A DNA stretch of 64,000 nucleotides from Dehalococcoidia bacterium (GTDB lineage Bacteria; Chloroflexota; Dehalococcoidia; E44-bin15): NCBI GenBank assembly GCA_035528575.1, contig DATKYK010000032.1:7163-71162 (forward strand). Direction: 5' to 3'. Both the position numbers and the translations under genes were made by a program. Below are positions 5,441 to 55,729 of the stretch, one piece after another. The stretch's first letter is position 1. Every line of letters starts with the position of its first letter. Below the pieces are notes generated by a model. The model was not told the DNA's origin, made no database searches, and worked only from the letters and a program-made list of their open reading frames with translations.

Positions 5441-5525
5441 GGGTCCGCCCCCACAAGGTATAGTTCCGATGAAGCCAATCCTAGTCGAATAGGTTTACCA
5501 TCTCAGCGAGCCGGCCTCGCTATCT

Positions 5526-5945: not shown

Positions 5946-6113
5946 AGATAACTGCGCAAACGCCTAAGCGGGTTAACGAACTCGCTCACCATTATGGTCT
6001 GCTCCCACTGCTCACTACGAAGATTATGCTAGCAGGGCAACTAAATAACTCCTCAAGCCCCTCCATATAATAGGTGAGCGCCGCTCTTGGTAAATCCTCA
6101 AAGCGCCGTTATT

Positions 6114-6449
6114 TTACCAGAATTCTACGTTCTGGTTCTGGACGTATTGCCCCTCCTGGAGAATGGCCGTAATCTCCCGCCTCGCTTCCTTATCGGCGAC
6201 CGGCTCCACCTCGGAAACCGGCATACCTGTATCGTTGACCCTATATTTCCAGTTTACAATGTATCCGGGCACAATAGCATAGGCGCAGCCACCGGTGCCA
6301 CAGCAACTGGATTCAATAACCCCGAGCCCGGTTATACAAAGCGCCTCTTTCCCATCGTGCTCCAGCCTCAGCTCATTCATTGGAGTATAGTACCCCGCCA
6401 GGGCATTTACATCCTTACCAAGCTCCTGGTGAACGTATTCCATCTTCAT
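6114..6449 (-). CDS. hypothetical small Cys/Gly-rich protein
   Basis: 111-aa ORF preceded by a strong SD (GGGAGGGAG). Contains the motif SSCCGTGGCAY. No family recognised. Confidence 0.5.
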   Translation of the reverse strand: MKMEYVHQELGKDVNALAGYYTPMNELRLEHDGKEALCITGLGVIESSCCGTGGCAYAIVPGYIVNWKYRVNDTGMPVSEVEPVADKEARREITAILQEGQYVQNQNVEFW

Positions 6450-6566
6450 CTCAACTCCCTCCCAAAACTGAGGCCGACCACAGGTCGCCGGCCGTGCTGA
6501 GGCGGCGCTCAGAAGTTTTCAACCCTTTTTTAAACGTTTAAAATGTTCATAGCGGCTAGCTCACCA

Positions 6567-7781: not shown

Positions 7782-7884
7782 AGCTTCGCTCCTTTCGAAA
7801 AACAGTATCCAAACTAATATTATTCATTATAAGACCACCTCAGCATGATGCGCAACGGCTTTAAACCGCGGCTGGGTCGACCGC

Positions 7885-9177
<1,293 letters not shown>

Positions 9178-9497
9178 CTACCTATCTCCTCTAAATACCC
9201 GGTGAGCGCTCTATTCTTATCCTTTTCTGATCTCCCCACCACGCCCTCCCACTCTTTAGAACTCATAACTACGCCCACCCGACCACGCAGTATAACAGAC
9301 GGGCACCCTTTTGATAAGGGGGCACACCAGGAGAAACCAATATTAGCCCCTCAGGTAGATAGGTGAAACATGGCAGCGTGGATTTCGCTTCATCTGCCCT
9401 CACGATCAACTCTGTGATGAGTCAGCCCAAGTGCCTAAAAGGTGGGTGGTAATAGACAGGTTTCTTCTCATTTTCTTCCTACAAAGGGGAGTCCGGA

Positions 9498-9537
9498 GGG
9501 GAATCCCCTCTGGCAGGGGTTTGGGGGTGTCCCCCAA
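9498..9537. repeat. degenerate member of the palindromic intergenic repeat family
   Basis: GGGGAATCCCC (9498-9508) and TTGGGGGTGTCCCCCAA (9521-9537) are palindromes like the TCCCCCAAnnTTGGGGGA core seen at 32.8, 55.5 and 58.1 kb. Confidence 0.35.
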
Positions 9538-9967
9538 GAAAAACATGTCAGGGCGGGTGGGTGGAAAAATACAAGTTCCTCCTTTCCAAAATCTTGCGAG
9601 CGCCGTGAAACAATCCTCACATTGGAATACTATCCCGGGGATTGCCACGTCCGGCGAGGCCGAAGCCTATATCAGGTAAGAATTACAAATGGGCAGTAAC
9701 TACTCTGACCAACGTGCCCGACTGTTGGCCGTCCGAGGATCTGTACATCAAATCGAACGCCCGTGTTACAAGGTAAACCTGGAAATGTCCATAGCTGTAT
9801 TCTGTGGCAACGACACCCACAATAGGCCAGCGATAGCGCCAGTACTAGTGTACCGGGGCGGAAAAACCATATTGACAACGATACTTAAAGGTGATAACTT
9901 TACTTAGTCAAAATCGTATTGCAATAAATACAGCACACTACTTTATAGCCCCTCAAGTTAAAAAGAA

Positions 9968-10039
9968 TGCCCGAGTGGCGCAACGGTAGCGCAGCCGACT
10001 TGTAATCGGCAGGGTAGCGGTTCGAATCCGCTCTCGGGC
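9968..10039 (+). tRNA. tRNA-Thr (anticodon UGU)
   Basis: 72-nt cloverleaf folded by hand: acceptor GCCCGAG/CTCGGGC, D stem GCGC/GCGC, anticodon stem GCCGA/TCGGC with loop CTTGTAA, T arm AGCGG-TTCGAAT-CCGCT. Confidence 0.85.
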
Positions 10040-10065
10040 TGTGTTATGTGCATGGCGAAACGGGG

Positions 10066-10152
10066 AGGCGGGGTGGGTGAGTGGCTAAAACCAGCAGACT
10101 GTAAATCTGCCGCCGACAGGCTTCGTAGGTTCGAATCCTACCCCCGCCACCA
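10066..10152 (+). tRNA. tRNA-Tyr (anticodon GUA), class II with long variable arm, CCA encoded
   Basis: Acceptor GGCGGGG/CCCCGCC, anticodon stem GCAGA/TCTGC with loop CTGTAAA, long variable arm, T arm TAGG-TTCGAAT-CCTA, 3-prime ACCA. Confidence 0.9.
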
Positions 10153-10179
10153 TATTTTGCCTAACAGTTTGCTTAACTT

Positions 10180-10539
10180 TTGGCATTGCTCCCTCCCACC
10201 CCAACTCCAACTCCCACACTAACCCCATCAGAGCCAACATTCCCCAGTTCATCCTATGCTTCTATTGCCATTGGGGGATATGTTCATTCGATTGGCCTCT
10301 ATCAAAATGATAGCCTACAGCATTTTATATCCGAGTCCGATATAATTGAGACTTGGGGAACCGGTGAGGCAGCATCTTATTCACTACTTCTCCTGGAGTA
10401 TCAGCTTTCAGATTCCGGAAGCCAAAGAAGAAGCGTAGCAGTGGGAAGCGAGGTGGCTTTGTTAAAATACAGACGAGCAAGAATTCAATCGTTATCGGAA
10501 CATTTAAGGAATTATGAGTTCCATAGCGTTACAAATTGA
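10180..10539 (+). CDS. hypothetical protein (Pro/Thr-rich N-terminus)
   Basis: 119-aa ORF with a TTG start inside the AT-rich islet. No recognisable motif; may be a gene remnant. Confidence 0.3.
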   Translation: MALLPPTPTPTPTLTPSEPTFPSSSYASIAIGGYVHSIGLYQNDSLQHFISESDIIETWGTGEAASYSLLLLEYQLSDSGSQRRSVAVGSEVALLKYRRARIQSLSEHLRNYEFHSVTN

Positions 10540-10684
10540 TTCTGCCTATGCGCATGCGACTATCTAGGCAGATTATAGGTGGCTACCCGAGTATGTGTAG
10601 CCCCTTATATTTTTACCCACAGCATTGACAGCCTATGCTCCCCAGGAGTATGCTCACCACATCATAATATGAGGTGTTTAGTAA

Positions 10685-11089
10685 TTGGAGGACGAAATAA
10701 GTCGTGTACTGCTCAAGTATGAGAAGTATATTTGGGAACATTCTAAAGCTCATGAACTCTGCGAAATAATTGCTAATCGAATCGAGAGAAGGGTTCATCG
10801 CCAGGTAACACTCCATGAATGGAAAACAGATATTGGATGGTCGTTTTATTCTACAAGGAATTTTGCCTCTGCTGGATGGAGGAAAGCAAAACAGTCATTG
10901 GTTATAGATACCAATAAGAAATGGGCAGACCGAGCAGGTGTTTCCGAACTTGCTGATGCTACTACAGAAAATGGCTGGCACGGGGAGCCAAGCTGCATTT
11001 GGTATGTGCAAGCAGGCGATGTTGAGAAGCGGGAAAGAGTAGCTGGATACCTAGCTCAGGTTTGCATAGCTCGGCATCGCCGAATGTAG
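10685..11089 (+). CDS. hypothetical protein
   Basis: 134-aa ORF with a TTG start in the islet. No recognisable family. Confidence 0.35.
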   Translation: MEDEISRVLLKYEKYIWEHSKAHELCEIIANRIERRVHRQVTLHEWKTDIGWSFYSTRNFASAGWRKAKQSLVIDTNKKWADRAGVSELADATTENGWHGEPSCIWYVQAGDVEKRERVAGYLAQVCIARHRRM

Positions 11090-11369
11090 GTCCACCAGGT
11101 TTATTGCGAAGGGCTATCCGAAAACCGAAAATGGGTGGCCCCTCTTTTCATACCCCATGCAACCTACCTTAATGCCGCCTTAGCTATAAAAAGCATACTA
11201 GTCACCTTGTGATAGGCATCCACAGCTCCACTGTTGCACCTATGAGGCTGCCACCAGCCCGCATCCAGCCAACCCGCATCCTTGAGCCTGACAGCCCTTA
11301 CTACGGTATTGACGTGTGTCAAAGCCTCCCTACAAAAAACCAAAATATTGTCAGGGATTTCCCCACATA

Positions 11370-11410
11370 AAAAAATACAGACTTTCCCCACAAAAAATAC
11401 AGACTTTCCC
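11370..11410 (+). repeat. tandem direct repeat, 2 x AAAAAATACAGACTTTCCC at 22-bp period
   Basis: Identical 19-mers at 11370-11388 and 11392-11410. A third related half-site, GGGATTTCCCCAC, lies just upstream. Confidence 0.7.
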
Positions 11411-11818
11411 GACAGACAAATGGCGCATCTTGTGTTACCGTAAATGTGAGCGTTTCGCCAGGCACTTCCTGCAGATAGCCACAATCACATACGGGCAAGA
11501 CTGAGGATTCACACAAAAAAGAATATCGGCTCAGGAAGTATGGTGACCTATGGTTTTGCCCAAAAAACCTTTAAGCGGGGTATCAAAGCCCAGCGCTGCA
11601 GCTACATAGATTCTGTGGTTTTTAGATATATTTGGAGCTCATAGGTTCTATCTAGGTGACTACGGCAGAGCAGTCGGCATGTTTCTCACGCTTGTAGGGT
11701 TTTTATTTGGGCTTTGGTCTACGCTTTCTTCATACCATCTGCGTTGAGGCTTAAAGAGGGTGAGGTACGGGAAGAAGTGCTTTTAGAAATCGCTGCGAGG
11801 AGGTCGAAGGAATAAACT

Positions 11819-12064
11819 ATGTGGGTAGTAGGTCGCATTCTACTTGTCATCCTGATGGTCATCGGTGTTCTTCTGGTTGCGGCAGGTACAGCAAGCCTTG
11901 TAGGAGCTGATAGTTGGACTGGCCAAATATATGATATTAACATTGACTCTGGAGTTTTCATGGGAGTTGGGGATGGGGGAGTGGCTCTGGGAGTAATACT
12001 ATTGGCAGCCAGTATTATAATGAAGCTAAGACCTACTAATTTGTATTTCTTACCTGCTTTTTAG
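11819..12064 (+). CDS. small membrane protein (two predicted TM helices)
   Basis: 81-aa ORF with an ATG preceded by GAGGAGG. Has hydrophobic stretches at both ends (VVGRILLVILMVIGVLLVAAG and GVALGVILLAASIIM). Confidence 0.4.
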   Translation: MWVVGRILLVILMVIGVLLVAAGTASLVGADSWTGQIYDINIDSGVFMGVGDGGVALGVILLAASIIMKLRPTNLYFLPAF

Positions 12065-12272
12065 GTTGGGGGGATAGGGCTTAGTGACTGAATAGCCTGT
12101 TCAGTTATAGAACACCCTTATCGCTCGGAAGTAAGCATTTTTACCGCCTGGAGAGCAATCCCACGAGTTAATGTAGTCGTTTATTGTGCCAGGCATTGTG
12201 GTTAGCCCTATAGCAGGAATAGCCTTTGTCAAAAAGGGTTTATAAAACCTGTTTATAGTTTCCAGCGATGTG

Positions 12273-12467
12273 CTATTTACCCTCTATTTTTGGAAAGAGG
12301 TCAATTGCACTATGCATATTAGCTACACTCTTCCCCCTGTTGGTGATATAATAGTAATCCGTTAGCGCCAGGCGCAATTTTCCGGACGGTGGATGCTTTC
12401 TTTGCTTAACCTGGGAGATGTATGGTTTGCTTAAATTGCTTAACTCCGCTATCTGGGAGGCAGTCAT
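12273..12467 (-). CDS. small helix-turn-helix protein (possible remnant of an element-borne regulator or recombinase N-terminus)
   Basis: Starts at the internal Met of the 93-aa ORF (MTASQIAELSNLSKPYISQVKQRK is HTH-like). The longer reading frame runs into the tRNA fragment and was not used. Confidence 0.4.
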   Translation of the reverse strand: MTASQIAELSNLSKPYISQVKQRKHPPSGKLRLALTDYYYITNRGKSVANMHSAIDLFPKIEGK

Positions 12468-12494
12468 TTTGTTAAGCAATTTAGATACGTCTGA

Positions 12495-12553
12495 GCAGAC
12501 CGTCAATCTGCCGCCGACAGGCTTTATAGGTTCGAATCCTACCCCCGCCACCA
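12495..12553 (+). repeat. partial copy of the tRNA-Tyr 3-prime half (att-like direct repeat)
   Basis: GCAGACCGTCAATCTGCCGCCGACAGGCTTTATAGGTTCGAATCCTACCCCCGCCACCA aligns with tRNA-Tyr 10094-10152 with about 4 substitutions. No matching 5-prime acceptor half lies upstream. Confidence 0.85.
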
Positions 12554-13031
12554 TACAGGTAGCTTACCGGGATTGTCCCCGCGGCCCCAAATTAGGGTGC
12601 CACGCGCATTTAATTAATTTATCTGTCGCCCCCGTCCTTGAATCGCCCCAAACGCATCAAATTTCAACGGCTTAAGGGGTAATTTCAGAGTTCTATAACT
12701 TAATGTGGTGGGGATACAAATTATCAGCGACAACCTTGATTTAATCGTCAGCGTCGATACGCCCTGGTTAAATAGCGAAAAATCTAACCCTTTCTCACTC
12801 TAAAAGGTACGTTCAGTTCCGGTCAATCACCATATAAGAGATTGTGATTTTAATACAATTGCATCAGGCAGCAGTATTGTCCAGTCTATCCAATATCCAG
12901 CGGTGCTGTAACACTTCGGTGCAGCATGTGCTTTGCAGCTGTGAGAAAAATTTTAACCAATGGGCGTCTGGGGTTAGAGACGATGAAGAGCATCGGCAAT
13001 AAGCGAGCTATACGGTGCGGGAGGGGATAGA

Positions 13032-32817: not shown

Positions 32818-32908
32818 CCGGGGGTCTCCCCGATGTATCGGGGCAGCTTTAAAAAATCCCCCAATCTTGGGGGATTAGGGGGTTGATTGAGACTATTTCA
32901 GCAGTCTC
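32818..32908 (+). repeat. palindromic MITE/REP-like intergenic repeat, copy A
   Basis: CCGGGGGTCTCCCCGATGTATCGGGGCAGCTTTAAAAAATCCCCCAATCTTGGGGGATTAGGGGGTTGATTGAGACTATTTCAGCAGTCTC. Roughly 95% identical by eye to 58058-58148. Confidence 0.85.
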
Positions 32909-33133
32909 TTATTATTAGCAATCGTGGTTAACAACTGACAACCGCCCCACTGTCGTCTACGATGTCTCCACCGTAAATCCCCGCTAAGTTGCTCCTCGCG
33001 CTACTGACAAGCACGGCGCAAAGAGCCGTTTACACTACTTCAATGCCTGGACTTGACAGCTTGAGTGTGGACGGCTTAGAGTAATGCCGGACTCAATTAG
33101 CGTCATCCCCTCTTTTTAGCGAGGGCACGTACA

Positions 33134-38536: not shown

Positions 38537-39288
38537 TAACCCTCAGTATCTGGGTATAGATAGACTCCCTGCTTTCTTGAGCCACGGAAACGATATGGCT
38601 GGCATGGCGATGCACCACAGCAACGTCAACATCTTAATATATGCTATCCCAATAATACTTAGTCATGGCGAGAGTCATGTGTCCGAGTAAGTATTGGAAA
38701 GCGGAATAAAATACCTCGCTCCCGCCCTAGGATTACCCCAAACGCTTCAAATTTCGACGGCAGGGGCGCAGTCCACATAGTTCTGAAGTGTTGGCTACCT
38801 GACTGTTATTCCGATAGCTTGATTTGATCTTTATTTTGAAATAGCTACATGTTTCAAAAAGATGGGGTAACGTTGATCTGAAGCTACGTTATTACTTAAC
38901 AAATATCCCGATGTTTGATAGGATTGCAGGCTTTCTACTATTGGTCCGCAATGAAGACAGTAACCCCGATGAACACAGATAACGCCACCGCATTTTAGGC
39001 AATGCCACCGCTCTTTGTCATTTCTAATAAAGGCACTTAAACCGAAGCCAAAACTTGTCCATTTAAACCTCCTCAGTGGTCATAAGATAGTACATATAGG
39101 CAACGACTAAACTTAGGAGCCAGATAGGATGCCAATCAGTCAATAGCCAGTTCCAAAAATCATTATACTTTTGCTCGGGATTGTTTTTCTCAGCTCTCAT
39201 TACACTTCCTCGATATCGATACCGTAAATTTCCTTCATTTGCTGCTTTTTAATTGAATACTCCACAGCCGGGGCATTTCCTTTCCTTT

Positions 39289-39597
39289 CTAAGATAAGCG
39301 AGGCGAATGCCACAATTCATACCACATGGAGCTATAAGTTGAGTTCCTTGCGACATATATCAGACTCCTTTTTAGAACATATTGAGTCTGACTTGTATTA
39401 TACTTGCTTTTCATGCAGTCCACGTTAACCTGATAAAACCACATGAAACGTTTCAGTTTATCCTGATAGTTGTTTATCGTCGCTTGCGATTTTGCCTCAC
39501 AGCAGCAATTAATGATGTAACCCTCGGCTAAAGATGTTATACTATTAACGGGGACTGCGTTTTTTATAAGAATGCGGTCTCCAACTTGACTTTTCAT
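39289..39597 (-). pseudogene. possible truncated tyrosine-recombinase N-terminal (SAM-like) fragment
   Basis: 102 codons starting at MKSQVGD, just upstream of tRNA-Thr. The segment AEGYIINCCCEAKSQATINNYQDKLKRFMWF resembles the core-binding domain pattern (..S..T...Y...L..F..F). No catalytic domain follows. Region is AT-rich. Confidence 0.3.
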
Positions 39598-39629
39598 TTC
39601 GGTTACCTTAAAATAGCTACGATTCGGCC

Positions 39630-39701
39630 GCCCACATAGCTCAGTGGTAGAGCACCTTCTTGGTAAGAAGGGGGTCGTCAGTTCAACTCTGACTGTGGGC
39701 T
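39630..39701 (+). tRNA. tRNA-Thr (anticodon GGU)
   Basis: 72-nt cloverleaf: acceptor GCCCACA/TGTGGGC, D arm GCTC-AGTGGTA-GAGC, anticodon stem CCTTC/GAAGG with loop TTGGTAA, T arm GTCAG-TTCAACT-CTGAC. In the classical position ahead of tuf. Confidence 0.9.
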
Positions 39702-39718
39702 TATGTTGAGGAGGAAAA

Positions 39719-40921
39719 ATGTCAAAGAAACTCTTTGAGCGAACCAAGCCCCATGTTAATGTGGGGACCATCGGTCACGTCGATCACGGCAAGACCACAC
39801 TGACCGCAGCGATAACCAAGATACTAGCCAGTGCGGGCATCACTAAGTATCGCGCCTTCGACTCCATCGATAATGCCCCTGAAGAGAAGGCCCGGGGGTT
39901 GACCATCGCCATCGCTCATATCGAGTATGAGACGGAGAAGCGCCACTACGCACACGTCGATTGCCCCGGCCACGCTGACTATATCAAGAACATGATCACC
40001 GGGGCAGCTCAAATGGACGGCGCCATCCTGGTGATCGCTGCCGATGATGGGGTGATGCCGCAGACGAGGGAGCACCTACTGCTGGCACACCAGGTAGAGG
40101 TGCCCTATATTATTTGCTGCATAAACAAGGTGGATTTGGTGGATGACGAGGAGCTTTTAGAGGTGAGCGAGCTCGAGTTGCAGGAGGAAGTGCTGCCCCA
40201 TTACGGCTTCCCCGGCAAGGAGGTACCGATAGTAAGGGTGAGTGCCTTAAAGGCACTGGAGTGTGGCTGCGGCAAGCGGGAGTGTCAGTGGTGCGGCCTT
40301 ATCTGGAAGCTACTGGATACCCTGGACGACTACATCCCCACCCCGGCGCGAGACAAGGACAAGCCCTTCCTCATGCCCATCGAGGACGTCTTCAGCATCA
40401 AGGGGCGGGGGACGGTGGCCACCGGACGGGTGGAGCGCGGGGTGATAAAGCCGGGGGAGGAGGTGGATATCGTGGGGCTCAGAGATACCCGCAGGGCTGT
40501 GGTCACCAGCGTGGAGATGTTCCACAAGACCCTCGCCGATGGGGAGCCCGGTGATGCCGTCGGCTGCCTGCTCCGCGGGGTGGAAAGGGAGGATATATTG
40601 CGGGGCATGGTGCTGGCAGCCAAGGGATCGATTAAGCCACACACCGACGCCGAGGCTGAGATATACGTCCTCACCAAGGAGGAGGGAGGCAGGCACACCC
40701 CATTCTTCACCGGCTACAAGCCTCAGTTCTTCATCAGAACAACCGACGTAACCGGAAGCATCGAGCTGCCCCAGGGTGTAGAGATGGTGATGCCCGGCGA
40801 TAATATCAAGATGAAGGTGAAGCTCATCGAGCCTGTTGCCATGGAGGAGGGGCTGAGGTTCGCCGTCAGAGAGGGTGGCCGCACCGTAGGTGCTGGCGTG
40901 ATCACCAAGACTATAGACTAG
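39719..40921 (+). CDS. tuf: elongation factor Tu
   Basis: 400-aa ORF with [22 protein letters not shown] and full EF-Tu domains II and III. Confidence 0.98.
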
Positions 40922-46991: not shown

Positions 46992-47576
46992 ATGCCTTAC
47001 ACAAGCTATCGCCGTTATGCCGAGGCCCCCATACTTTTCCTGATAGCCTTAAACGTCGTACTATATATAGCGACACTTGCCGACCCTGACCTCCTCTACA
47101 CCCTCGGCCTGCAGCCGTCAACCTGGATGGAAAGGCCCTGGACCTTAATAACCAACCTCTTCGTCCACGGTGGCCTATGGCACATCGCAGCCAACATGCT
47201 AACCCTGTACTTTTTCGGAAGGTACCTCTGCATGATGGTCGGAGACGCCCGGTTCCTCACCCTTTACTTCCTCGGCGGGATAGCGGGCAACTTCCTTTAC
47301 ATACTGCTGTCCTCATCCAACGCCTGGGTTATAGGCGCATCCGGGGCCATCTTTGCCATAGCCGGGGCACTTACCGTGATGGCACCGAAGATGAGAGTTT
47401 TTATATTCCCCATACCGGCCCCCCTCCCCCTATGGGTAGCGGTCATCGGCGGCTTCGTCGTGCTCTCCTTTTTCCCCAACGTGGCGTGGCAGGGTCACCT
47501 CGGCGGCCTCGCCATAGGCCTGGCAGCGGGCTATTTCTTCAAAAGTCGCAAGCGTAACATGCCGTTCTTCCGCTAG
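46992..47576 (+). CDS. rhomboid-family intramembrane serine protease
   Basis: 194-aa polytopic ORF with HGGLWHIAANM, catalytic GASGAIFA and a downstream H (AWQGHLGG). Confidence 0.88.
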   Translation: MPYTSYRRYAEAPILFLIALNVVLYIATLADPDLLYTLGLQPSTWMERPWTLITNLFVHGGLWHIAANMLTLYFFGRYLCMMVGDARFLTLYFLGGIAGNFLYILLSSSNAWVIGASGAIFAIAGALTVMAPKMRVFIFPIPAPLPLWVAVIGGFVVLSFFPNVAWQGHLGGLAIGLAAGYFFKSRKRNMPFFR

Positions 47577-47592
47577 TCCCCATCATGCTGAA
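47505..47592 (+). repeat. direct repeat, left copy (3-prime end of the rhomboid gene plus 16 nt)
   Basis: 88 bp aligning without gaps to 50163-50250. I counted about 15 mismatches by eye. Confidence 0.8.
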
Positions 47593-47837
47593 CCTGGGCC
47601 GTGACCCGGCTACAGGTATATTTAAGCCCAATGTCGGAGTTAGCCTCGAAACGTTACGCAAATATCCAGACTTTTTCGGTATCTATAAAGAGGCATTCTT
47701 TTGAAAAACGCTCGATTTATACGTAAAATACAGTTGTGCGAATCCAGCCAGCTTCATTAGTGTTAGAGCTATTGGAATGGAGTGAAGATACCGCCTTGTC
47801 AATTAATACGACCGCATTCACCGATATACATTCAAAG

Positions 47838-48704
47838 TTACCGATCTATCTTGTCATTAGCAAGTTTGTAATCTGAAAAATCTGAAATGTAATCGACCTT
47901 GCTTTTATTTCTAATTAAGGTCGCAAAATCCCTAATCATCATTCGTTCAATCTGAACACGAAATCGTGATAAGCTATCAGGTAAAACATCATATCGGAAA
48001 TAATTCCAATCCTTTATCGAAGGATATGGTCGAGATAATCGTTCTATAAGGTCTTGCGCCTCACCAATATATAACAGCCTTTGCTCTGTATCTAACAGCA
48101 TGTAAATGACATTTCCAGCCCCTAATTCATACTGTAATTCTTCCCTCTGCCTCCAATCCTGTTTATAAATGCGGTCGCTGCCTTTATCTTCCAACTCATC
48201 AGATATTTGTTTTATTGCTGGTGACCCAATTAATCGTTTAAAAAGATTGGGGAAACTTGGTTTCTGTGTGTAATAGCTAACGAATCGAAATTGCTTTTCA
48301 TCTTGGTCGTATTCGATATCAAGAAACTCCCAGAATGGAATACTATCTTCTACATCAGTATTATCCTCTGTGGAAAGCTTCTGTTCGAGGGATCTCATGT
48401 AGCTCATTAAAAAGGTATTCTTTAGCTTTAGTGATAACTCTTCATCGAAAAAGAGTTGGTATACGGTACTTCTTGCTTGCTCATATGTAACTATCTTAAC
48501 CCAACCGTCATATTTCTTGTTAATATACTTTATGGTCACGTCTACGCCTGTACTACGTTTGTGGGAGGTATGCTTAAAAAGCTCAGGTATCCCCCACAGT
48601 TTGCAAACCCAATTAGGAATTGTCGTCCCATTGTATTCGAACAAAGACTTATCGACTTTCTTCCGCCACATTGGGTAGTCTATATTCGATCTTTCACGTC
48701 TCAT
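47838..48704 (-). CDS. GIY-YIG nuclease-domain protein with N-terminal B3/EcoRII-N-like putative DNA-binding domain (islet gene C)
   Basis: Start set at the ATG 9 nt after GGAGGG (MRRERSNIDY..); the ORF is open to 48839. C-terminus: NVIYMLLDTEQRLLYIGEAQDLIERL ... RVQIERMMIRDF (GIY-x10-YIG, Arg, Glu). N-terminus: SLFEYNGTTIPNWVCKLWGIP...VDVTIKYINKKYDGWVKIV..VYQLFF resembles a pseudobarrel DNA-binding pattern. Confidence 0.7.
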   Translation of the reverse strand: MRRERSNIDYPMWRKKVDKSLFEYNGTTIPNWVCKLWGIPELFKHTSHKRSTGVDVTIKYINKKYDGWVKIVTYEQARSTVYQLFFDEELSLKLKNTFLMSYMRSLEQKLSTEDNTDVEDSIPFWEFLDIEYDQDEKQFRFVSYYTQKPSFPNLFKRLIGSPAIKQISDELEDKGSDRIYKQDWRQREELQYELGAGNVIYMLLDTEQRLLYIGEAQDLIERLSRPYPSIKDWNYFRYDVLPDSLSRFRVQIERMMIRDFATLIRNKSKVDYISDFSDYKLANDKIDR

Positions 48705-48826
48705 TCTGCAATTCCCTCCGTTTACCCCGCCCGTTGTCCTTGCATTCTTATTGTTCTTTGTATTCTGGTGATACGGTACAGCGTGGCCTCGCCGGTTACC
48801 ATTGACAAGGCCAACGTTTGAACTTG

Positions 48827-49474
48827 TCAGCTTACCCAAATGTTTAATTGGCTTCTAAACTGGAGGAATTTCTCGGCGATTGCGTCTCCGACATAGATAA
48901 AATAATTCGCATCTGAAAAATCGCAGAAGTAGTCATGACTCTCTAAGAATTTACCACGCGCAATGCTTGCGTGTAGCAGTGGAATGATGTTTGTAACTGT
49001 TGGATCGAATGATTCAATTGCATCTCTAAACTGTTCACCAAGTGTCCGCGTGTTCCAAGATTTATAAGGAGCATGTTTCCCTGAACTCGTTGCCCGCCTC
49101 GTGAACTCTAATGAAAAAGCACCGAAGCAGAAGATTACTTGCGGATTATGCGTTTGCACATCAGTGTTGAAATCTTTTACAGCTTGTTGTAAATATTCAG
49201 ACCATAGGAGGTCTAGCTGGGCTGGTTTGTATTGGGTATTCTGTATTGCGTTTCTCACATAGAATTTGCTCTGGTCAATATGGAGCTTGGCTGCTTCAAA
49301 TACCTTATCTTGGATTTCGAGCAAGATGGGCGTCCAAATGTTGTGTCGAGCTGGATGACGTGAATCAAGTGGTTCTTGGAGCCTGCTCTCCCAGTTCTTA
49401 GGGTTAGAATCTCCCACGAGCCATATTGCGCTTTTAGTATCGCCTTGTGCTCTGGCCATCATCTTTTGAACCAT
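48827..49474 (-). CDS. divergent uracil-DNA-glycosylase-superfamily-like protein (islet gene B)
   Basis: 215-aa ORF. Motif order fits the UDG fold: IWLVGDSNP (position of GEAPG motif A), FYVRNAIQN (Asn strand), PQVIFCFGAFS (central strand), IIPLLHASIARG (position of HPS motif B). Confidence 0.6.
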   Translation of the reverse strand: MVQKMMARAQGDTKSAIWLVGDSNPKNWESRLQEPLDSRHPARHNIWTPILLEIQDKVFEAAKLHIDQSKFYVRNAIQNTQYKPAQLDLLWSEYLQQAVKDFNTDVQTHNPQVIFCFGAFSLEFTRRATSSGKHAPYKSWNTRTLGEQFRDAIESFDPTVTNIIPLLHASIARGKFLESHDYFCDFSDANYFIYVGDAIAEKFLQFRSQLNIWVS

Positions 49475-49511
49475 AATATTAACCTCACGAGTTCCATTTT
49501 TATATTAGGTG

Positions 49512-49985
49512 TTATGTTCCGTATGCTATTGCCATTTGCATTGCACGAAGAATCGGGAACCCCTCGGGGACTGCTTCCTTCATGGGGTGTTGCGAGCTAA
49601 GCTTTTTAGTATTCTTTTTTATAAATACTGGGATAAGTTCTATCTCGATATCCTGGCCCCAGTTAAGGTCTGCCTTGGTTGAATGAACGTATCCAACTAC
49701 TGCAATTCTTTTTATTTTACTGACTTTATGACCCAGGATGTCTTCATATTCTCTTGTAGTAAGTATGAATTTCTTATTTAGGAACTGACGTTTGCGTTCC
49801 TCCCATGAATTGGCATCTCCTGACGTTTCTATATGTATCAAGGTATTCTTGGATCGATCGTATGCCAACACGTCTAGCTCTACGTCATAGCCACCTTTTT
49901 TTCGCTTGCGCGTTCTCACGTTTGATCGGACGAAGTATCTATCATACTCATACCATTCAGCTACGAGCTGTTCTAAGAAGTTCAT
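49512..49985 (-). CDS. PD-(D/E)xK (Mrr/NucS-like) nuclease-fold protein (islet gene A)
   Basis: 157-aa ORF with an ATG 8 nt after AAGGAGGG. N-terminus: FLEQLVAEWYEY..YFV.....GGYDVELDVLAYD....LIHIETS, which is the helix, D, then ExS/K layout of restriction-endonuclease-like folds. Confidence 0.6.
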   Translation of the reverse strand: MNFLEQLVAEWYEYDRYFVRSNVRTRKRKKGGYDVELDVLAYDRSKNTLIHIETSGDANSWEERKRQFLNKKFILTTREYEDILGHKVSKIKRIAVVGYVHSTKADLNWGQDIEIELIPVFIKKNTKKLSSQHPMKEAVPEGFPILRAMQMAIAYGT

Positions 49986-50013
49986 TGATATACCCTCCTT
50001 TAGTATTAGATTG

Positions 50014-50045
50014 ATTATAGCATAGGAGTGTTACTTTCTTACCAG
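50014..50045 (-). promoter_or_regulatory. candidate extended -10 promoter of the islet operon
   Basis: On the minus strand, TGcTATAAT (the TATAAT is the complement of 50014-50019) lies about 25 nt upstream of the gene A SD. An A/T-rich region lies upstream of that. Confidence 0.4.
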
Positions 50046-50162
50046 AATTGCTTTCTATATCCTTATTCTGCTGTAAGCTAAATGCCACTTGGCCATGCTT
50101 AAATAACTCGCCCTATTCCCTCTCTCCCCAGAGAAGCAGCGTAGCCTTGCCTTGCCCGATGG

Positions 50163-50250
50163 GGCCTCGCTCTAGGCCTGGCAGCGGGCTATTTCCTCCG
50201 CGGACGCAAGCGCAACATAATATTCTTCCGCTAGCCCCCATTATGCTGAA
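50163..50250 (+). repeat. direct repeat, right copy (orphan rhomboid 3-prime fragment)
   Basis: Translates in frame to GLALGLAAGYFLRGRKRNIIFFR-stop, versus GLAIGLAAGYFFKSRKRNMPFFR-stop in the intact gene. No similarity continues upstream of 50163. Confidence 0.8.
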
Positions 50251-50419
50251 ATTATCCATACAGATGGGTAACACCATAAAATGATAGCATCCGCATCATC
50301 GCCATGAGCGAGTACCTGCTGAAGAGCGGAGCCGGTTCATCCAGCTTGACAGACAGCGCCCCTTGATATATTCTCCTCGCACACGAGACTCAACTGCGCA
50401 TTTCCTGAGGGAGGTAAAT

Positions 50420-51301
50420 ATGTTCGTTGATGCGATTGAGACGGTGGCAGCTTTCACACGCACTATTCATTCGATAAGCCGTAACTATGCATCTACCGAT
50501 GTCCAACCTGGTGCTGCGACCCTTTTCTTTGTCAATTCAGATGGCTGGGCGCTAACTTGTGCTCACGTAGCAAAGCAACTCCAGTTGGCAGAGGAAATCA
50601 ACAAGAAATACGAAGCATTCAAAAATGAATTGGCCTCTCGTAAGGGAGAAAAAACGGAGAAACAACTCCGAAAGGAGTTAGAGAGGAAATATGGCTATTC
50701 CAAGCGAACTACTGTTGAGCTTCGCAATCGCTTTATGAACTGTATTGAAGGCGAATTGAATATTGAAGCCCGTCTCCACCAGACGGTGGATATAGCACTA
50801 CTGAAATTCCAATCCTTTGATCAATTGTTGTGCAACAAGTTTCCGGTATTTCCAAAGGATACATCCGGTCTAAAGCAAGGCAAGTCTATTTGCCGGCTAG
50901 GCTTCCCATTTCCCGAATTTACCAACTTCACTTACGATAAAACTAATGATAGTATTCGCTGGACTCAAAGTGGGCGAATAGATACACCCCGTTTTCCTAT
51001 TGAAGGTATGGTGACCCGAAATGTTAAAGACAAGGGCGCTCTGGTTGCATTCGAGCTGAGCACACCAGGCCTGCGTGGACAAAGCGGTGGGCCAGCATTT
51101 GATGTAGATGGGAAGGTCTGGGGAATGCAGTCGCGTACGAGTCATCTCGATCTTGACTTCGATGTTGATCAAGAAGTGATACGAGGCGGTCTACCAAAGC
51201 GTGTTCAAGACAGCGCATTTCTACATGTAGGGATCTGCATACATGTAGATATCTTGAAATCCTTTATGCAGGATAATGGCGTTAATTTCAAAGAAGGATA
51301 A
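50420..51301 (+). CDS. cytoplasmic trypsin-like (S1/chymotrypsin-fold) serine protease
   Basis: Start at the ATG 7 nt after GGGAGG (MFVDAIETV..). Triad candidates: TCAHV (His), VDIALLKF (Asp), GLRGQSGGPAF (Ser). No signal peptide. A charged helical insert lies between His and Asp. AT-rich. Confidence 0.8.
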   Translation: MFVDAIETVAAFTRTIHSISRNYASTDVQPGAATLFFVNSDGWALTCAHVAKQLQLAEEINKKYEAFKNELASRKGEKTEKQLRKELERKYGYSKRTTVELRNRFMNCIEGELNIEARLHQTVDIALLKFQSFDQLLCNKFPVFPKDTSGLKQGKSICRLGFPFPEFTNFTYDKTNDSIRWTQSGRIDTPRFPIEGMVTRNVKDKGALVAFELSTPGLRGQSGGPAFDVDGKVWGMQSRTSHLDLDFDVDQEVIRGGLPKRVQDSAFLHVGICIHVDILKSFMQDNGVNFKEG

Positions 51302-51370: not shown

Positions 51371-51884
51371 TCAGTCTAACAACCCCCCACTCAACTCCTC
51401 CCTCCCCTCGCACTGCTGGCACTGGGGAGGCAGCGCCCACAGGGGCCGCACCCTCAGCGAAACGCCGGCCCGTTTTAGCATCCCCGCCAGGGTGCAGAGC
51501 GGGAGCCCCACCACGTTGAGGTAGCAGCCATCCACCCGCTCCGCCGGCTTGAAATACGGGTCCTGGATGCCGTATGCCCCGGCCTTATCCAAAGCGTCAC
51601 CTGAAGCTATGTAGGCAGCGACCTCCTCATCGGAGTAGCGGCGCATGGTGACTGTAGTTGTAGCGTGGCCTACATACGAGTGCCCTCCACTCAGCACCGC
51701 GACGCCGGTGATAACGGTGTGCTCCCCTCCCCGCAGAAGACACAGCATATCGCAGGCCTCCTCAGCATCGCGGGGCTTTCCCAATATGGTGCCGTCATGG
51801 ACAACGATTGTATCAGCGGCAACCACCGTTTGCCCCCCATTTGCCCCTGAAATCGCCTCTGCCTTTTTCAGCGCCAGTCGCTCC
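51371..51884 (-). pseudogene. truncated Maf-like fragment (copy of the 3-prime part of the rlmD-maf gene)
   Basis: 51397-51884 is a direct repeat of 53582-54069, roughly 94% identical by eye. It lacks the Maf N-terminal motif (LASASPRR) and has an unrelated N-terminal 20 aa in the 192-aa ORF. Confidence 0.8.
51397..51884. repeat. 488-bp direct repeat, left copy
   Basis: Aligns to 53582-54069 at a constant offset of 2185 bp at both ends. Confidence 0.9.
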
Positions 51885-52026
51885 GCTGCTTTGCGCGCTT
51901 GTAAGTTTAACTCTATGAAGAGTACAATAACCAGGGACAGGGCAGTCACTTATAGGTAGTTCGGTGAGTCAAGGGATGATTGTGGCTCAGGTTCTAGTAA
52001 TCGAAGAGAATTGAGAAGGAACAAAA

Positions 52027-53400
52027 GTGAAAATCAACTATAATATTATCAGGACCTTGCGCTGCAAAAACGCTAATATTCCGGGCACATTGGGCCAGTT
52101 GACGACAGTCATTGGTAGAACTGGCTCAGAGATTAGAAACATATCAACCGTCCATCTGGGGCATCATTATACCGTGAGGGACATTGAGGTACTCATTGAG
52201 AACGCAAAACACCTTGAACAACTAGTAAAAGAAATATCTGAGATTGGAGGTGTATCAGTTCTCCAAGTCAGAGATGATGTACTCGAACTTCACAAGAACG
52301 GAAAAATCAAGATGATAAGCACTGTTCCCGTCAACTCTCTGGATGACCTCTACAGGGTCTATACCCCAGGGGTGGCCGAGGTATGTAGGCTGATAATGGA
52401 GCAGGAGAGCTTGAAGTATACGTACACCAATATTGGCCATTCAGTAGCTATTGTTACCGATGGGTCTGCCGTCCTCGGATGGGGCAATATCGGCTCTGTG
52501 GCAGGAATGCCGGTTATGGAAGGGAAAGCTGCTCTGCTCCAGCAGCTGGTGGGGATTAGCGGAATACCTATCCTATTAGACAGTACCGATCCTGATGAGA
52601 TCGTGGAAACAGTGAAACATATTGCTCCTACATTTGGCGGAATACAGTTAGAAGACATAGCATCACCACGTTGTTTTTCTATTGAAGATAGGCTAAAGAA
52701 AGAGCTGAGTATTCCTGTTATGCACGATGACCAGCATGGCACCGCTGTGGTAACGTTGGCAGCTTTGATCAATGCGTGCAGGCTCAGCGGTATCACGCTC
52801 GAGGAGGCAAGGATTGGACTCATTGGTCTGGGTGCTGCTGGTCTTTCCATAGGCAGGTTTCTCTTGCGATACACGGGTAATCCTACGTTTGGCGTGGCGA
52901 AAACGGAGGCCAGTAAAAAACGACATGCTGAGCATGGAGGTATTCCTTCCAGCCTTAGCGAAATAATGGAAACGGCTGATATAGTTATCGCTACTACCGG
53001 TGTAGTGGACCTAATAAAGCCCGAGATGGTAAGACGTGGCCAGATTATTTTCGCGCTATCTAATCCGTATCCAGAAATCACTGCGGAGCTTGCCATAGCA
53101 TCTGGTGCCACTTTCGCTGTCGATGGTAGGACAGTGAATAACCTGCTGGGCTATCCTGGGATTTGGCGGGGAACACTAGATGCAGAAGCTACCGAGATCA
53201 ATTACGAGATGTACAAAGCTGCAGCTCTAGCTATTGCAGGTGAGGCACATCAGGATGAAATTGTACCTAAGTTGTTAGATCCCAAGGTACACCTGGCGGT
53301 GACTCATAGCGTGGCGAAGGCTGCTATAGAATCGGGCGTTGCTGAGCGCCAACTTGACGAGGATTACTTTGAAGATACCGATTTTATAGGACCTTTTTAA
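52027..53400 (+). CDS. NAD(P)-dependent malic enzyme with N-terminal ACT-like domain
   Basis: 457-aa ORF with a GTG start. Motifs: YTPGVAEVC, VAIVTDGSAVLGWGNIG, GIQLEDI, DDQHGTAVV, GLGAAG. Confidence 0.9.
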   Translation: MKINYNIIRTLRCKNANIPGTLGQLTTVIGRTGSEIRNISTVHLGHHYTVRDIEVLIENAKHLEQLVKEISEIGGVSVLQVRDDVLELHKNGKIKMISTVPVNSLDDLYRVYTPGVAEVCRLIMEQESLKYTYTNIGHSVAIVTDGSAVLGWGNIGSVAGMPVMEGKAALLQQLVGISGIPILLDSTDPDEIVETVKHIAPTFGGIQLEDIASPRCFSIEDRLKKELSIPVMHDDQHGTAVVTLAALINACRLSGITLEEARIGLIGLGAAGLSIGRFLLRYTGNPTFGVAKTEASKKRHAEHGGIPSSLSEIMETADIVIATTGVVDLIKPEMVRRGQIIFALSNPYPEITAELAIASGATFAVDGRTVNNLLGYPGIWRGTLDAEATEINYEMYKAAALAIAGEAHQDEIVPKLLDPKVHLAVTHSVAKAAIESGVAERQLDEDYFEDTDFIGPF

Positions 53401-53438: not shown

Positions 53439-53512
53439 GAGATTGCTGCTGAAATAGTCTCAATCAACCCCCAGCCCCGATATAATCGGGGCGCCTCTTT
53501 TTCAGCAATCTC
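53439..53512 (-). repeat. short copy of the dispersed MITE/REP-like repeat with terminal inverted repeats
   Basis: GAGATTGCTGCTGAAATAGTCTCAATCAACCCCCAGCCCCGATATAATCGGGGCGCCTCTTTTTCAGCAATCTC. The ends GAGATTGCTG..AAA and TTT..CAGCAATCTC are inverted repeats. Confidence 0.8.
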
Positions 53513-53561: not shown

Positions 53562-55370
53562 TCATAACCTACCACACAATGCCTCCCTCCCCTCGCACTG
53601 CTGGCACTGTGTCGGCAGCGCCCACAGGGGCCGCGCCCGCAGCGGAACGCCAGCCTCCCTTAGCATCCCCGCCAGGGTGCAGAGCGGGAGCCCCACCACG
53701 TTGAGGTAGCAGCCATCCACCCGCTCCGCCGGCTTGAAATACCGGTCCTGGATGCCGTATGCCCCGGCCTTGTCCAAAGCGTCACCTGAAGCGATGTAGG
53801 CCGCGATCTCATCATCGGAGTAGCGGCGCATGGTGACTGTAGTTGTAGCGTGGCCTACATACGAGTGCCCTCCACTCAGCACCGCGACGCCGGTGATAAC
53901 GATGTGCTCCCCTCCCCGCAGACGACACAGCATATCGCGTGCCTCCTCAGCATCGCGGGGCTTTCCCAATATGGTGCCGTCATGGACAACGATTGTATCG
54001 GCGGCAACCACCGTTTGTGGCCCCTTCGCCCCTGAAATCGCCTCTGCCTTTTTCAGCGCCAGTCGCTCCACCACCCGCTCCACATCTTCCGCACTGGCAG
54101 GTAGAGCCTCATCCCCAGGTGGGGCAACCGCCTCGAAATCCAGACCCAGGGCAAAAAGAAGCTCGCGGCGGCGCGGCGATGCTGATGCCAGCACCAGCCC
54201 GGGCGATACATCGCCCCGCACCAGGGTGGCGACGCACTCCACGTGGTAGGTCTGGGGGAACATATCCACCGGCTGCACCGCCACCAGGCGATAGCCCCCC
54301 TGACATAATATCTCAAGGTCGCGCGCCAGGGTCGCTGGCTCGCAGGAGACATAGATGAGCCTCTGCGGTGAAAGCTGAATAAGTGCGGCGAGCGCCCTGC
54401 GGCGGCAGCCCGCGCGAGGCGGGTCGAGGATGGCGACATCGGGAACCACCTCAAGCTGTGGCAGCACCTCCTCTGCCCTCCCCTGGAGCATTTCAATGTT
54501 ATCCAGCCCGGCCATATTCTCTGCGGCATCCTTTACTGCCGCTGCCGAGTCCTCGATGGAGATCACCCTGCCGACCAGGGGGGCGAGCAGAGCGGCGAAG
54601 GTGCCCACCCCGGCGAAGACATCGATTAGAAGCCCCGTGCCATCGGGATGGAGATAGTCACGGAGCAGCTCGACCAGCCTCTCCGCCTGTGGTGTATTCA
54701 CCTGGAAGAAGGAGGGGGAGGCGATGCGAAAGCGCCGCCCCAAGAGCTCCTCCTCATAGCTGGGCTGTCCCGATTCGATTACAGGAAGCTCCGGCTGGAT
54801 GAGCCGCTCCCCGGTATTAACCCCGTAGCGCATCGCCACCTGGCTGGCACCGGCACACCTCCCCTGCAGCGTGGCGAGAGTGGAGTTGATCCAGGGGGTC
54901 ATCAGGTGGCATAGATCGACGGGGATAAAATCACCGGTATTTTTGTGGACAAAGCCCAGCTGCCCCAGGGGGTTAACGGAGAAGCGGGCGTGATTTCGGT
55001 AGTACCACGGCTCGGGGGAGGGCAGGGTTTCCAGCACCGGGGCGTCGGGTAGATTGCCCCGCTCCATAAGCTTCCGCTCCACCATCCCCCTCTTGAGCGC
55101 CAGTTGAAAGGGGTAATCGATATGCTGCCACTGGCAGCCGCTGCACCTGCCGAAGTTCGGGCAGCGGGGCGCTATGCGGTGGGGCGACTCCGTTATAAGC
55201 TCCACCACCTCGCCCACAATATGGCGCTTCCCCCGCTTACCCAGCACCACGGCCTCCTCGCCGGGGATGCCGTTGGCGGCGAACACCAGCTCACCATCGT
55301 GCCGGGCGAGGGCGTCGCCCTGCGGCGCGATGTCGGTGAATTTTACCCTCAGCCGCTCCTCTGGAACCAT
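53562..55370 (-). CDS. fusion protein: RlmD/RumA-type 23S rRNA (uracil-C5)-methyltransferase plus Maf nucleoside-triphosphate pyrophosphatase
   Basis: 602-aa ORF. Has an N-terminal TRAM-like domain, an Fe-S Cys cluster (CPNFGRCSGCQWQH) and a SAM MTase core (DVFAGVGTF, ILDPPRAG, YVSCEP). The C-terminal roughly 200 aa is Maf (LVLASASPRRRELL...VVAADTIVV..G.ILGKP...AGAYGIQD). Confidence 0.88.
   Translation of the reverse strand: MVPEERLRVKFTDIAPQGDALARHDGELVFAANGIPGEEAVVLGKRGKRHIVGEVVELITESPHRIAPRCPNFGRCSGCQWQHIDYPFQLALKRGMVERKLMERGNLPDAPVLETLPSPEPWYYRNHARFSVNPLGQLGFVHKNTGDFIPVDLCHLMTPWINSTLATLQGRCAGASQVAMRYGVNTGERLIQPELPVIESGQPSYEEELLGRRFRIASPSFFQVNTPQAERLVELLRDYLHPDGTGLLIDVFAGVGTFAALLAPLVGRVISIEDSAAAVKDAAENMAGLDNIEMLQGRAEEVLPQLEVVPDVAILDPPRAGCRRRALAALIQLSPQRLIYVSCEPATLARDLEILCQGGYRLVAVQPVDMFPQTYHVECVATLVRGDVSPGLVLASASPRRRELLFALGLDFEAVAPPGDEALPASAEDVERVVERLALKKAEAISGAKGPQTVVAADTIVVHDGTILGKPRDAEEARDMLCRLRGGEHIVITGVAVLSGGHSYVGHATTTVTMRRYSDDEIAAYIASGDALDKAGAYGIQDRYFKPAERVDGCYLNVVGLPLCTLAGMLREAGVPLRARPLWALPTQCQQCEGREALCGRL
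53582..54069. repeat. 488-bp direct repeat, right copy (inside the intact maf domain)
   Basis: See 51397-51884. Confidence 0.9.
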
Positions 55371-55517: not shown

Positions 55518-55622
55518 GAGATTTCTGAAATAGTCCCAATCAACCCCCTAAGTCCCCCAATCTTGGGGGACTTTTTTTAAAGCGGCCCCGATATAATCGG
55601 GGCACCTCTTTTTCAGCAGTCT
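55518..55622 (-). repeat. full-length copy of the dispersed MITE/REP-like repeat with terminal inverted repeats
   Basis: GAGATTTCTGAAATAGTCCCAATCAACCCCCTAAGTCCCCCAATCTTGGGGGAC..GCGGCCCCGATATAATCGGGGCACCTCTTTTTCAGCAGTCTC. It is the reverse complement of the 32.8-kb and 58.1-kb copies. Confidence 0.85.
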
Positions 55623-55729
55623 CCTTCATACAACCGCTTTAAATTATAGTGGCTTCCTCCAGTATAAAAAAGTCGCCTCCCCATTGCGAGAACGGAGAAG
55701 CGACTAAATCGAACAGTTTGGGTAAAGGG

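Follow-up and report, generated by a model that had tools for sequence, protein, structure and literature searches.

Brig1 is a single-gene defence glycosylase with a uracil-DNA-glycosylase (UDG) fold that excises alpha-glucosyl-hydroxymethylcytosine (alpha-glucosyl-hmC) from T-even DNA, and its immunity requires no apurinic/apyrimidinic (AP) endonuclease or other nuclease partner (PMC11078745). Homologs of Brig1 are found mostly in Actinobacteria, and the structure that it matches best is 4ZBY, a family-4 UDG (PMC11078745). Brig2 is a UDG-like defence protein that acts against phages with modified thymidines; its homologues lie preferentially in A/T-rich regions, about 41% of them with a mobile element or a known defence system no more than 20 kb away, and come mostly from Pseudomonadota and Bacillota (10.1101/2025.10.29.685425). 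Brig3 excises 5-hydroxymethylcytosine (5hmC) (10.64898/2026.02.25.707755). The fusions of a winged helix (wH) to a GIY-YIG domain, Ahi29725I and Apa233I, are single-protein type IV enzymes (PMC11037411), as is the GIY-YIG enzyme CMoRE (PMC12923530). Here we analyze a 64,000-nucleotide (nt) stretch of DNA from a Dehalococcoidia bacterium (contig DATKYK010000032.1; the whole stretch is referred to as the window) that carries a small islet of three genes at the 3′ end of a rhomboid-family protease gene. Gene A encodes a small protein with a PD-(D/E)xK fold, gene B a divergent member of the UDG superfamily and gene C an N-terminal region followed by a GIY-YIG domain. The first-pass annotation of this DNA had proposed that the three genes form one cooperating glycosylase-plus-nuclease defence system.

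Our main result is that this proposed three-gene system is not real. The reading that we prefer, at a probability of about 0.55, is that the locus is a mosaic defence islet composed of two separately mobile modules, an A-B block and gene C, rather than one system. Conserved co-occurrence and order of the trio had been chosen beforehand as the test of such a system and were essentially lacking, with only A and B paired, in one small clade and without C. To collect B loci one genome for each of 185,579 species was scanned, which yielded 55 loci with B homologs at 34–49% identity; a metagenome scan yielded 80 A loci with A homologs at 40–74% identity. Neither A nor C is found within 6 kb of B at any of the 55 genome loci (tblastn, E <= 1e-3), and neither B nor C is found near A at any of the 80 metagenome loci, many of which extend more than 1 kb past the 3′ end of A. 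Likewise, A and B are absent from five C loci and from the locus of the closest C homolog (P0121, 92% identical in amino acids (aa)), where two unrelated divergent open reading frames (ORFs) lie upstream. When 1,287 ORFs from 151 loci were clustered all against all, no neighbor family proved to be broadly shared with A or with B. The complete A-B-C trio is seen in one population only.

Adjacency of A and B is limited to the window and the loci L005/L006 and L160/L161, which form one small clade; none of the other loci with A or B shows it. Within this clade the A-B block (~48832–50057, including the promoter region of A) is kept at 77–82% nucleotide identity between the window and L005/L006 and L160/L161, with A-B spacings of 37–105 nt, and L160 and L005 have 1449 nt in common at 80% identity. 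The block lies in the islet in the window, beside uppS in L005, and within the stretches 3075–6179 of L160 and 11–5169 of L161 (A 71% and B 74% identical), where one flank holds a Type ISP enzyme and a ParE toxin-antitoxin pair and the other a large serine recombinase and tRNA genes; C is absent from both of these other contexts. The DNA homology of C to its closest locus, L156, covers 47836–48723 only (92%), which amounts to the ORF and the 19 nt that precede its ATG. The closest stand-alone A (P0243, 85% identical in amino acids; 90% in nucleotides against L157) is homologous over exactly 49512–49985, after which comes an unrelated convergent gene, and it is not accompanied by B. Since the A-B block occurs elsewhere without C, the homology of C is confined to its ORF and the flanks are unique, we conclude that the islet is a mosaic.

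The islet is delimited both by its composition and by a repeat. The guanine-plus-cytosine (GC) content falls from 0.55–0.58 in the rhomboid gene to 0.37–0.46 over 47600–50000, which is the GC minimum of the 64-kb window (mean ~0.55) and bears out the AT-rich block that had been described after the rhomboid stop codon. Other stretches of the window with reduced GC (0.44–0.48) lie at 10000–13000 and 39000–40000. The final 23 codons of the rhomboid gene, its stop codon and 16 nt form an 88-nt direct repeat whose two copies are 83% identical at a spacing of 2658 nt, far above chance. The tail of the rhomboid gene translates to GLAIGLAAGYFFKSRKRNMPFFR followed by the stop, and the distal copy, read in the same frame, gives GLALGLAAGYFLRGRKRNIIFFR and ends at a stop codon in the corresponding position. 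The first-pass annotation had recognized this diverged repeat with its intact distal reading frame and had proposed a foreign islet bracketed by it, and the repeat and the composition together uphold that proposal: the DNA at 47593–50162 is horizontally acquired and sits at the 3′ end of the rhomboid gene. The layout of the islet is identical in assemblies from five different samples and is therefore not an assembly artefact. Between the repeats neither the ORF list nor the Pfam scan contains a methyltransferase, integrase or transposase, as had been noted, and there is no cognate modification enzyme. The flank 3′ of gene C lacks homology to other C loci as well as any significant secondary structure, and Rfam and tRNA scans of the islet region gave no match. 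Upstream of the islet lie the genes of the ribosomal proteins L11, L1, L10 and L7/L12, and on its other side a gene for an rpoC-type RNA polymerase subunit is found ~9 kb away.

The three genes between the repeats are co-oriented on the minus strand (Table 1), with gaps of 37 nt between A and B and 122 nt between B and C. An extended −10 element (TGcTATAAT) and a Shine-Dalgarno (SD) sequence (AAGGAGG) can be read upstream of A and purine-rich SDs upstream of B (GTGAGG) and C (GGAGGG), in agreement with the expression signals first described for this gene set. The region upstream of A is conserved together with the A-B block, at 77–79% identity to L005 and L160 as far as 50057 and 50028, respectively. 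A generic promoter scan did not flag the promoter of A because it lacks a −35 element. Neither of the two gaps holds a predicted terminator, and the spacer between B and C contains no terminator-like or attC-like structure; judged from these signals, co-transcription of the three genes is plausible.

Table 1. Positions of the genes, repeats and intergenic segments of the islet and its surroundings in the window.
Feature	Coordinates	Strand	Evidence
Rhomboid-family intramembrane protease gene, 194 aa (target gene)	46992..47576	+	Pfam Rhomboid, E 5.6e-35
Left copy of the 88-nt direct repeat (rhomboid's final 23 codons, stop and 16 nt)	47505..47592	+	Repeat search, alignment, translation
Non-coding flank 3′ of gene C, 245 nt	47593..47837	-	No ORF of at least 50 aa
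Gene C, 288 aa (~190-aa N-terminal region, then C-terminal GIY-YIG domain)	47838..48704	-	Homologs, Pfam, invariant columns
B-C spacer, 122 nt (junction of A-B block and C module)	48705..48826	-	A-B homology with L005 and L160 stops at 48832 and 48823
Gene B, 215 aa (divergent UDG-superfamily member)	48827..49474	-	Homologs, alignment, Pfam UDG in relatives, AlphaFold2 (AF2), Foldseek
Gene A, 157 aa (small stand-alone PD-(D/E)xK-fold protein)	49512..49985	-	Homologs, invariant columns, AF2, Foldseek
Upstream region of A, conserved together with the A-B block	49986..50057	-	Extended -10 TGcTATAAT at 50022-50014, SD AAGGAGG at 50000-49994
Right, displaced copy of the rhomboid-tail repeat (in frame, stop position kept)	50163..50250	+	Repeat search, alignment, translation
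TrmA-like/Maf fusion gene, 602 aa, convergent	53562-55370	-	ORF list

The family of B comprises 256 homolog clusters (counted, as for A and C below, in a 90%-identity cluster database at E <= 0.001) of proteins of ~210 aa. The window's B has no match in Pfam at the curated threshold, NCBIfam, PADLOC, PHROG or the PDB sequences, and searches of the PDB with B as a single sequence and as a profile returned no meaningful match. Pfam UDG (PF03167) matches 27 of 40 family members at E <= 1 (best E 3.9e-7), and one B homolog has a precomputed weak match to PF03167. The alignment-based AF2 model (predicted local distance difference test (pLDDT) 89, predicted template modeling score (pTM) 0.88) has 36 Foldseek matches in the PDB at E <= 1e-3, every one of them a UdgX or a family-4 UDG, with TDG and family 5 coming after these; the top matches have E values of 1.6e-6 to 9e-5, a probability of 1.0 and template modeling (TM) scores of ~0.5. 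In an alignment of 40 sequences D22, S23, P25, N75 and H168 are invariant. The motif GDSNP (21–25) follows β1, N75 follows β2 and H168 follows β4 within the family motif LLH(A/V)SI, which as motif B reads LLHAS (166–170) in the window's protein; their equivalence to the UDG motifs is inferred by position. To our knowledge GDSNP is the motif A of no described UDG family, the canonical forms being GQDPY, GINPG and GE(A/G)PG. The 40-sequence alignment contains no invariant or near-invariant cysteine, hence B has no 4Fe-4S cluster. The earlier assignment of a UDG fold, with its landmarks in the correct order and a non-canonical motif A, is thus confirmed by the model, by its matches to UdgX and family-4 UDG and by GDSNP. 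We regard B as a candidate glycosylase for a non-canonical base.

The family of C is larger (498 homolog clusters) and spans several phyla; the best 120 of the 498 homologs are mostly 283–297 aa long and 51–92% identical to the window's C, the bulk of the family lying near 286 aa and 52–62% identity, and NCBI lists some of them as GIY-YIG nuclease family protein. We place the start of C at the ATG because homologs of ~286 aa cover 100% of the query. A longer ORF of 333 aa with a TTG start was rejected as an artefact. Pfam GIY-YIG matches all 26 aligned family members (best E 1.7e-6), and the family-invariant residues Y201, Y212, G214, E215, R222, E253 and N283, with the motifs VIY (201) and LYIGE (212–215), are of the catalytic type, so that the GIY-YIG nuclease domain proposed for C is well founded; the window's own C scores 17.8 bits against a cut-off of 22.6. 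The N-terminal ~190 aa, for which a B3/EcoRII-N-type pseudobarrel had been suggested, have no Pfam or PDB match in profile searches, and the C profile showed no detectable similarity to any solved structure in the PDB. A profile of the N-terminal region found 290 proteins among 1.84 billion representative proteins, nearly all with the ~286-aa architecture or fragments of it. In four proteins (P0453, P0460, P0457 and P0458) the first ~140 aa of this region (WRKK(V/M)D...IPFWEF(L/I)DIE) are fused to two other C-terminal modules, neither of which matches Pfam or the PDB, which shows that the N-terminal region of C behaves as a module in its own right.

The family of A contains 355 homolog clusters of proteins nearly all 157 aa long, the best 120 of which are 59–100% identical to the window's A. 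Pfam, NCBIfam and PADLOC gave nothing above threshold, with a sub-threshold match to DUF7543 only, and the profile found nothing meaningful in the PDB. The AF2 model (pLDDT 80) has the order αβββα...β and matches restriction-endonuclease-like domains in the PDB by Foldseek (Upx, R2 RLE, AF1548, Card1, Can2, MspJI, PspGI and McrC; best E 5.7e-4, probability 1.0); in BFVD the best match (E 1.3e-5) is named PD-(D/E)XK nuclease superfamily protein. The fold of the PD-(D/E)xK nuclease-type protein proposed earlier is thereby borne out. E10 and E13 on helix 1, D38 on strand 2 and E53 on strand 3 are invariant, S55 and K71/K72 are also conserved, and a conserved C-terminal helix reads VPEGFPLLR. The role of A appears the least clear of the three: judged by its fold and its neighbors, it would be a protein of nuclease fold whose gene usually occurs singly in the company of restriction genes.

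The closest named relatives of the A, B and C proteins come from Chloroflexota metagenome-assembled genomes (MAGs), and the settings of the three families bear out the prediction that their homologs would have defence-type neighborhoods, with restriction and defence genes near A and B and the few examined C loci lying among mobile-element and defence-type genes. Among 150 neighboring ORFs of A, which contain 122 Pfam families, Mrr is the commonest (5 loci), followed by Type ISP (3), the DpnII and TdeIII restriction endonucleases (REases), PemK and WYL, and PADLOC matches include type IV and type IIG enzymes, a type I REase, DarG, pAgo, DrmD, SspD, BrxH and others. At five loci (L072, L079, L080 and two further metagenome loci) an Mrr-type type IV gene lies ~90 nt upstream of A on the same strand; A may thus assist restriction genes and not the glycosylase. 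The 144 neighboring ORFs of B contain 164 Pfam families, led by the YhcG/DUF1016 PD-(D/E)xK nuclease (5), and PADLOC models of the candidate system PDC-S02 match six neighbor proteins. At four loci in Dehalococcoidia MAGs (L018, L019, L027 and L031; ~4200–10000 in each) B directly follows the YhcG/DUF1016 nuclease, a nuclease partner other than A, and in L018, L019 and L031 it lies 0.3–1.7 kb from a large serine recombinase, which in several of the MAGs comes after B and some intervening genes; these YhcG-B loci look like one related mobile element. Homologs of C adjoin patatin/iHKD, NERD, AEP-like and resolvase genes. In Pelobacter propionicus a C homolog lies beside transposase and resolvase genes, and on a Hymenobacter plasmid one follows DUF4007 and PAPS-reductase-family genes, with helicase, PLD-family and DUF262 genes downstream. 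Relatives of A, B and C number zero in 50,697 GenBank phage records and zero in 2.9 million IMG/VR contigs, whereas a plasmid collection contains three matches to A, one to C and none to B. Searches of the PADLOC, NCBIfam and PHROGs libraries with A, B and C returned no match beyond the noise level. These virus-free, defence-rich settings fit host-side accessory genes of the defence-island type, a function that they do not prove.

No ORF in 47593–50162 encodes a recombinase, and an exact-protein look-up found no empty site among the contigs that encode the identical rhomboid protein, all of which carry the islet or end inside it. The insertion would have duplicated the last ~24 codons of the rhomboid gene, or brought in a replacement copy of them, and left no recombinase behind. 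The islet may be a remnant of a recombinase-bearing element, because relatives of A-B and of B adjoin large serine recombinases. L160/L161 represent a recombinase-bearing defence element of the kind from which the window's islet may derive. An integron cassette, an idea raised by the homology that ends at ORF boundaries, was rejected: there are no attC-like core pairs (no RYYYAAC...GTTRRRY pair on either strand over 47400–50400) and no significant hairpins (the intergenic DNA folds no better than shuffles, z −1.6 to +1.3), and the A-B gap is only 37 nt.

A second gene-tail duplication is found next to the islet. The 3′ 504 nt of the TrmA-like/Maf fusion gene, which encode the Maf domain (53566–54069), are repeated at 51381–51884 with 93.7% identity, and the 192-aa ORF at 51371–51949 lacks the Maf N-terminus and is therefore a displaced tail. 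A malic-enzyme gene of lower GC lies between the two Maf-tail copies (52027–53400), and this duplication too is without a recombinase. The layout of the region is thus rhomboid gene (forward), its tail, C-B-A, tail copy, protease, Maf-tail copy, malic enzyme, Maf tail and the TrmA-Maf gene (reverse). A test for divergence of the repeat copies under selection in different genomes gave no clear signal: their differences at codon positions 1/2/3 number 5/2/6 in the rhomboid tail and 9/8/15 in the Maf tail. Two tail-duplicating insertions without a recombinase suggest a common route, and one can speculate that this was the Campbell-type integration of a circular fragment via homology to the gene tail. 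Just beyond the right repeat (50363–51301, plus strand) lies a gene for a trypsin-like serine protease (Pfam Trypsin_2, E 2.4e-12; GC 0.42–0.48), which PADLOC matches weakly (E 7e-6) to the protease portion of RT-Protease_XI; this gene may have occupied the site earlier or may be a further acquisition. A short intergenic repeat of ~40–70 nt, with copies 88–96% identical, occurs at 53449–53512, 55525–55623 and ~32852–32923; it includes a GC-rich hairpin with a run of T behind it (GCCCCGATATAATCGGGGC...TTTTT) and resembles a terminator module of the repetitive extragenic palindromic (REP) or miniature inverted-repeat transposable element (MITE) type.

In the mosaic that we propose, the first module would be the A-B block with its own promoter. 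B would act as a Brig-type stand-alone glycosylase that flips out and excises a non-canonical base of invading DNA, leaving abasic sites that would block replication, and A would be a small PD-(D/E)xK nuclease of the sort that elsewhere stands alone inside restriction and defence islands. The second module would be C, a single type IV-like polypeptide in which the N-terminal module would recognize DNA or its modification and the GIY-YIG domain would cut. Several points weigh against this proposal. B lacks the canonical motif A of any characterized UDG family and could bind rather than cut DNA, or act on a target other than phage, and it is likened to Brig1, Brig2 and Brig3 by fold and description, not by sequence. 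The strand-3 motif of A is E53-T-S55, without the lysine of (D/E)xK, and A could be catalytically altered, or K71/K72 on the next helix could substitute for the missing residue, to judge from the alignment. The window's B and C score below the Pfam curated thresholds, and PADLOC 2.0 recognizes none of the three proteins; it matched no system either, in keeping with the earlier remark that the trio is no named defence system. The contigs with the identical rhomboid include no empty site, and the islet no recombinase, that would point to a mechanism of insertion. Finally, A and B are kept as a block in three contexts, which leaves room for functional coupling between them.

That coupling is the basis of a different explanation, in which A and B form a two-gene glycosylase-nuclease module, with B making abasic sites in modified invader DNA that A cuts, or with A depending on B, and with C as an unrelated neighbor. 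The block with its promoter and its spacing of 37–105 nt is indeed kept at 77–82% nucleotide identity in three unrelated contexts, and the YhcG-B order in Dehalococcoidia hints at a recurrent pairing of glycosylase and nuclease. We nevertheless consider such a module unlikely: A is without B at 80 of 80 metagenome loci, including homologs of ~70–74% identity (L072–L077 and L080), and at L157 (85%), which are as close as the paired ones, B is without A at 55 of 55 genome loci, the Dehalococcoidia loci carry the same recombinase-bearing element and may reflect one event, and Brig1 provides immunity without a nuclease partner (PMC11078745). From the overwhelmingly solo occurrence of A and of B we argue that neither needs the other. 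A more ambitious version, which we hold to be very doubtful, makes A-B a two-component effector in which the GDSNP glycosylase removes a modified base and a dedicated A turns the abasic sites into breaks, or licenses or limits B, with the Dehalococcoidia YhcG-B pair as an analogous version in which the nuclease has been swapped; if true, it would add a new pairing of glycosylase and nuclease to the defence systems described so far. The original three-component proposal, a type IV-like system in which A, B and C couple base excision to strand cleavage, has an attractive functional logic and can point to three co-oriented, closely spaced genes with one recognizable promoter and no predicted terminator between them. 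It is nonetheless highly improbable, given that the trio occurs in one population only, that no A, B or C locus elsewhere has the other two genes, that the relatives that keep A-B are without C, and that the match to the closest C starts 19 nt before the ATG, a mark of the separate acquisition of C.

The genes might also have nothing to do with immunity and be accessory DNA-repair enzymes, or selfish, single-gene, free-standing nucleases of the homing type that spread as ORF-sized units. GIY-YIG and PD-(D/E)xK are classic homing-endonuclease folds, and UDG-fold proteins are classically repair enzymes; the homology of A and C stops almost at the ORF boundaries and many of the neighbors are ordinary housekeeping genes. 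Free-standing homing nucleases are mostly found in phages and viruses, yet A, B and C are absent from the phage and viral collections. The spread of B (55 loci in 185,579 species) is sporadic, unlike that of housekeeping repair enzymes, B lacks the canonical uracil-excision motif, and restriction and defence genes top the neighbor lists of A and B. We therefore rate an origin outside immunity as quite unlikely, and retain the mosaic of two defence modules as our preferred reading.

On this reading the locus adds three sizeable families without curated annotation, those of A and B mostly called hypothetical proteins and found in environmental phyla (Chloroflexota, Myxococcota and Desulfobacterota) that experimental defence screens have covered little. 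B may well represent one more family of antiviral DNA glycosylases, a class recognized only in 2024–2026, with an active-site loop unlike those of the characterized UDG families. C presents a new putative recognition module on a GIY-YIG nuclease and could become a reagent if the module reads a DNA modification. The locus also offers a small, clean case of two adjacent tail-duplicating insertions without a recombinase for the study of how islets insert.

Among attachment-site-bounded (attL/attR-type) islands at gene 3′ ends, the islet has familiar features in its direct repeat over the last codons and the stop, the intact gene and the foreign cargo. It differs from them in having no integrase, in repeats that are 17% diverged throughout without an identical core and in the second tail duplication next door. 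The A protein resembles the nuclease domains of Mrr, AF1548 and Card1/Can2 in its αβββαβ core and its acidic residues E10, E13, D38 and E53, and differs from them in its D...E-x-S arrangement without lysine, its C-terminal helix VPEGFPLLR and its lack of a family match above threshold. C is like the wH-GIY-YIG enzymes in that a non-catalytic module precedes GIY-YIG in one protein of ~290 aa, without a methyltransferase partner and in defence-island-type contexts, its activity being predicted from sequence. From CMoRE it differs in its opposite domain order (PMC12923530), and the C profile does not match CMoRE in the PDB. The best fold matches of B are family-4 UDG and UdgX (1UI0, 1L9G, 4ZBY and 6AIL; E 1.6e-6 to 5e-5), with which it shares the order of motif A after β1, asparagine after β2 and the histidine of motif B after β4; unlike them, it has no GE(A/G)PG and no 4Fe-4S cysteines, and it is only 10–17% identical to them, with no sequence-profile match. 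B resembles Brig1 by fold and setting, with no sequence comparison involved, in being a single-domain UDG-fold protein of ~210 aa with 4ZBY among its structural matches. It resembles Brig2 in its lack of annotation, its sporadic phyletic spread, its low-GC mobile or defence regions and its occurrence as a stand-alone gene. From both it is set apart by a family found mainly in Chloroflexota and other environmental phyla, by GDSNP as its motif A and by its linkage to a PD-(D/E)xK gene in one clade. The kinds to which the parts of the islet would belong are already known, namely the stand-alone defence glycosylases, the single-chain GIY-YIG type IV enzymes and the small PD-(D/E)xK nucleases of defence islands.

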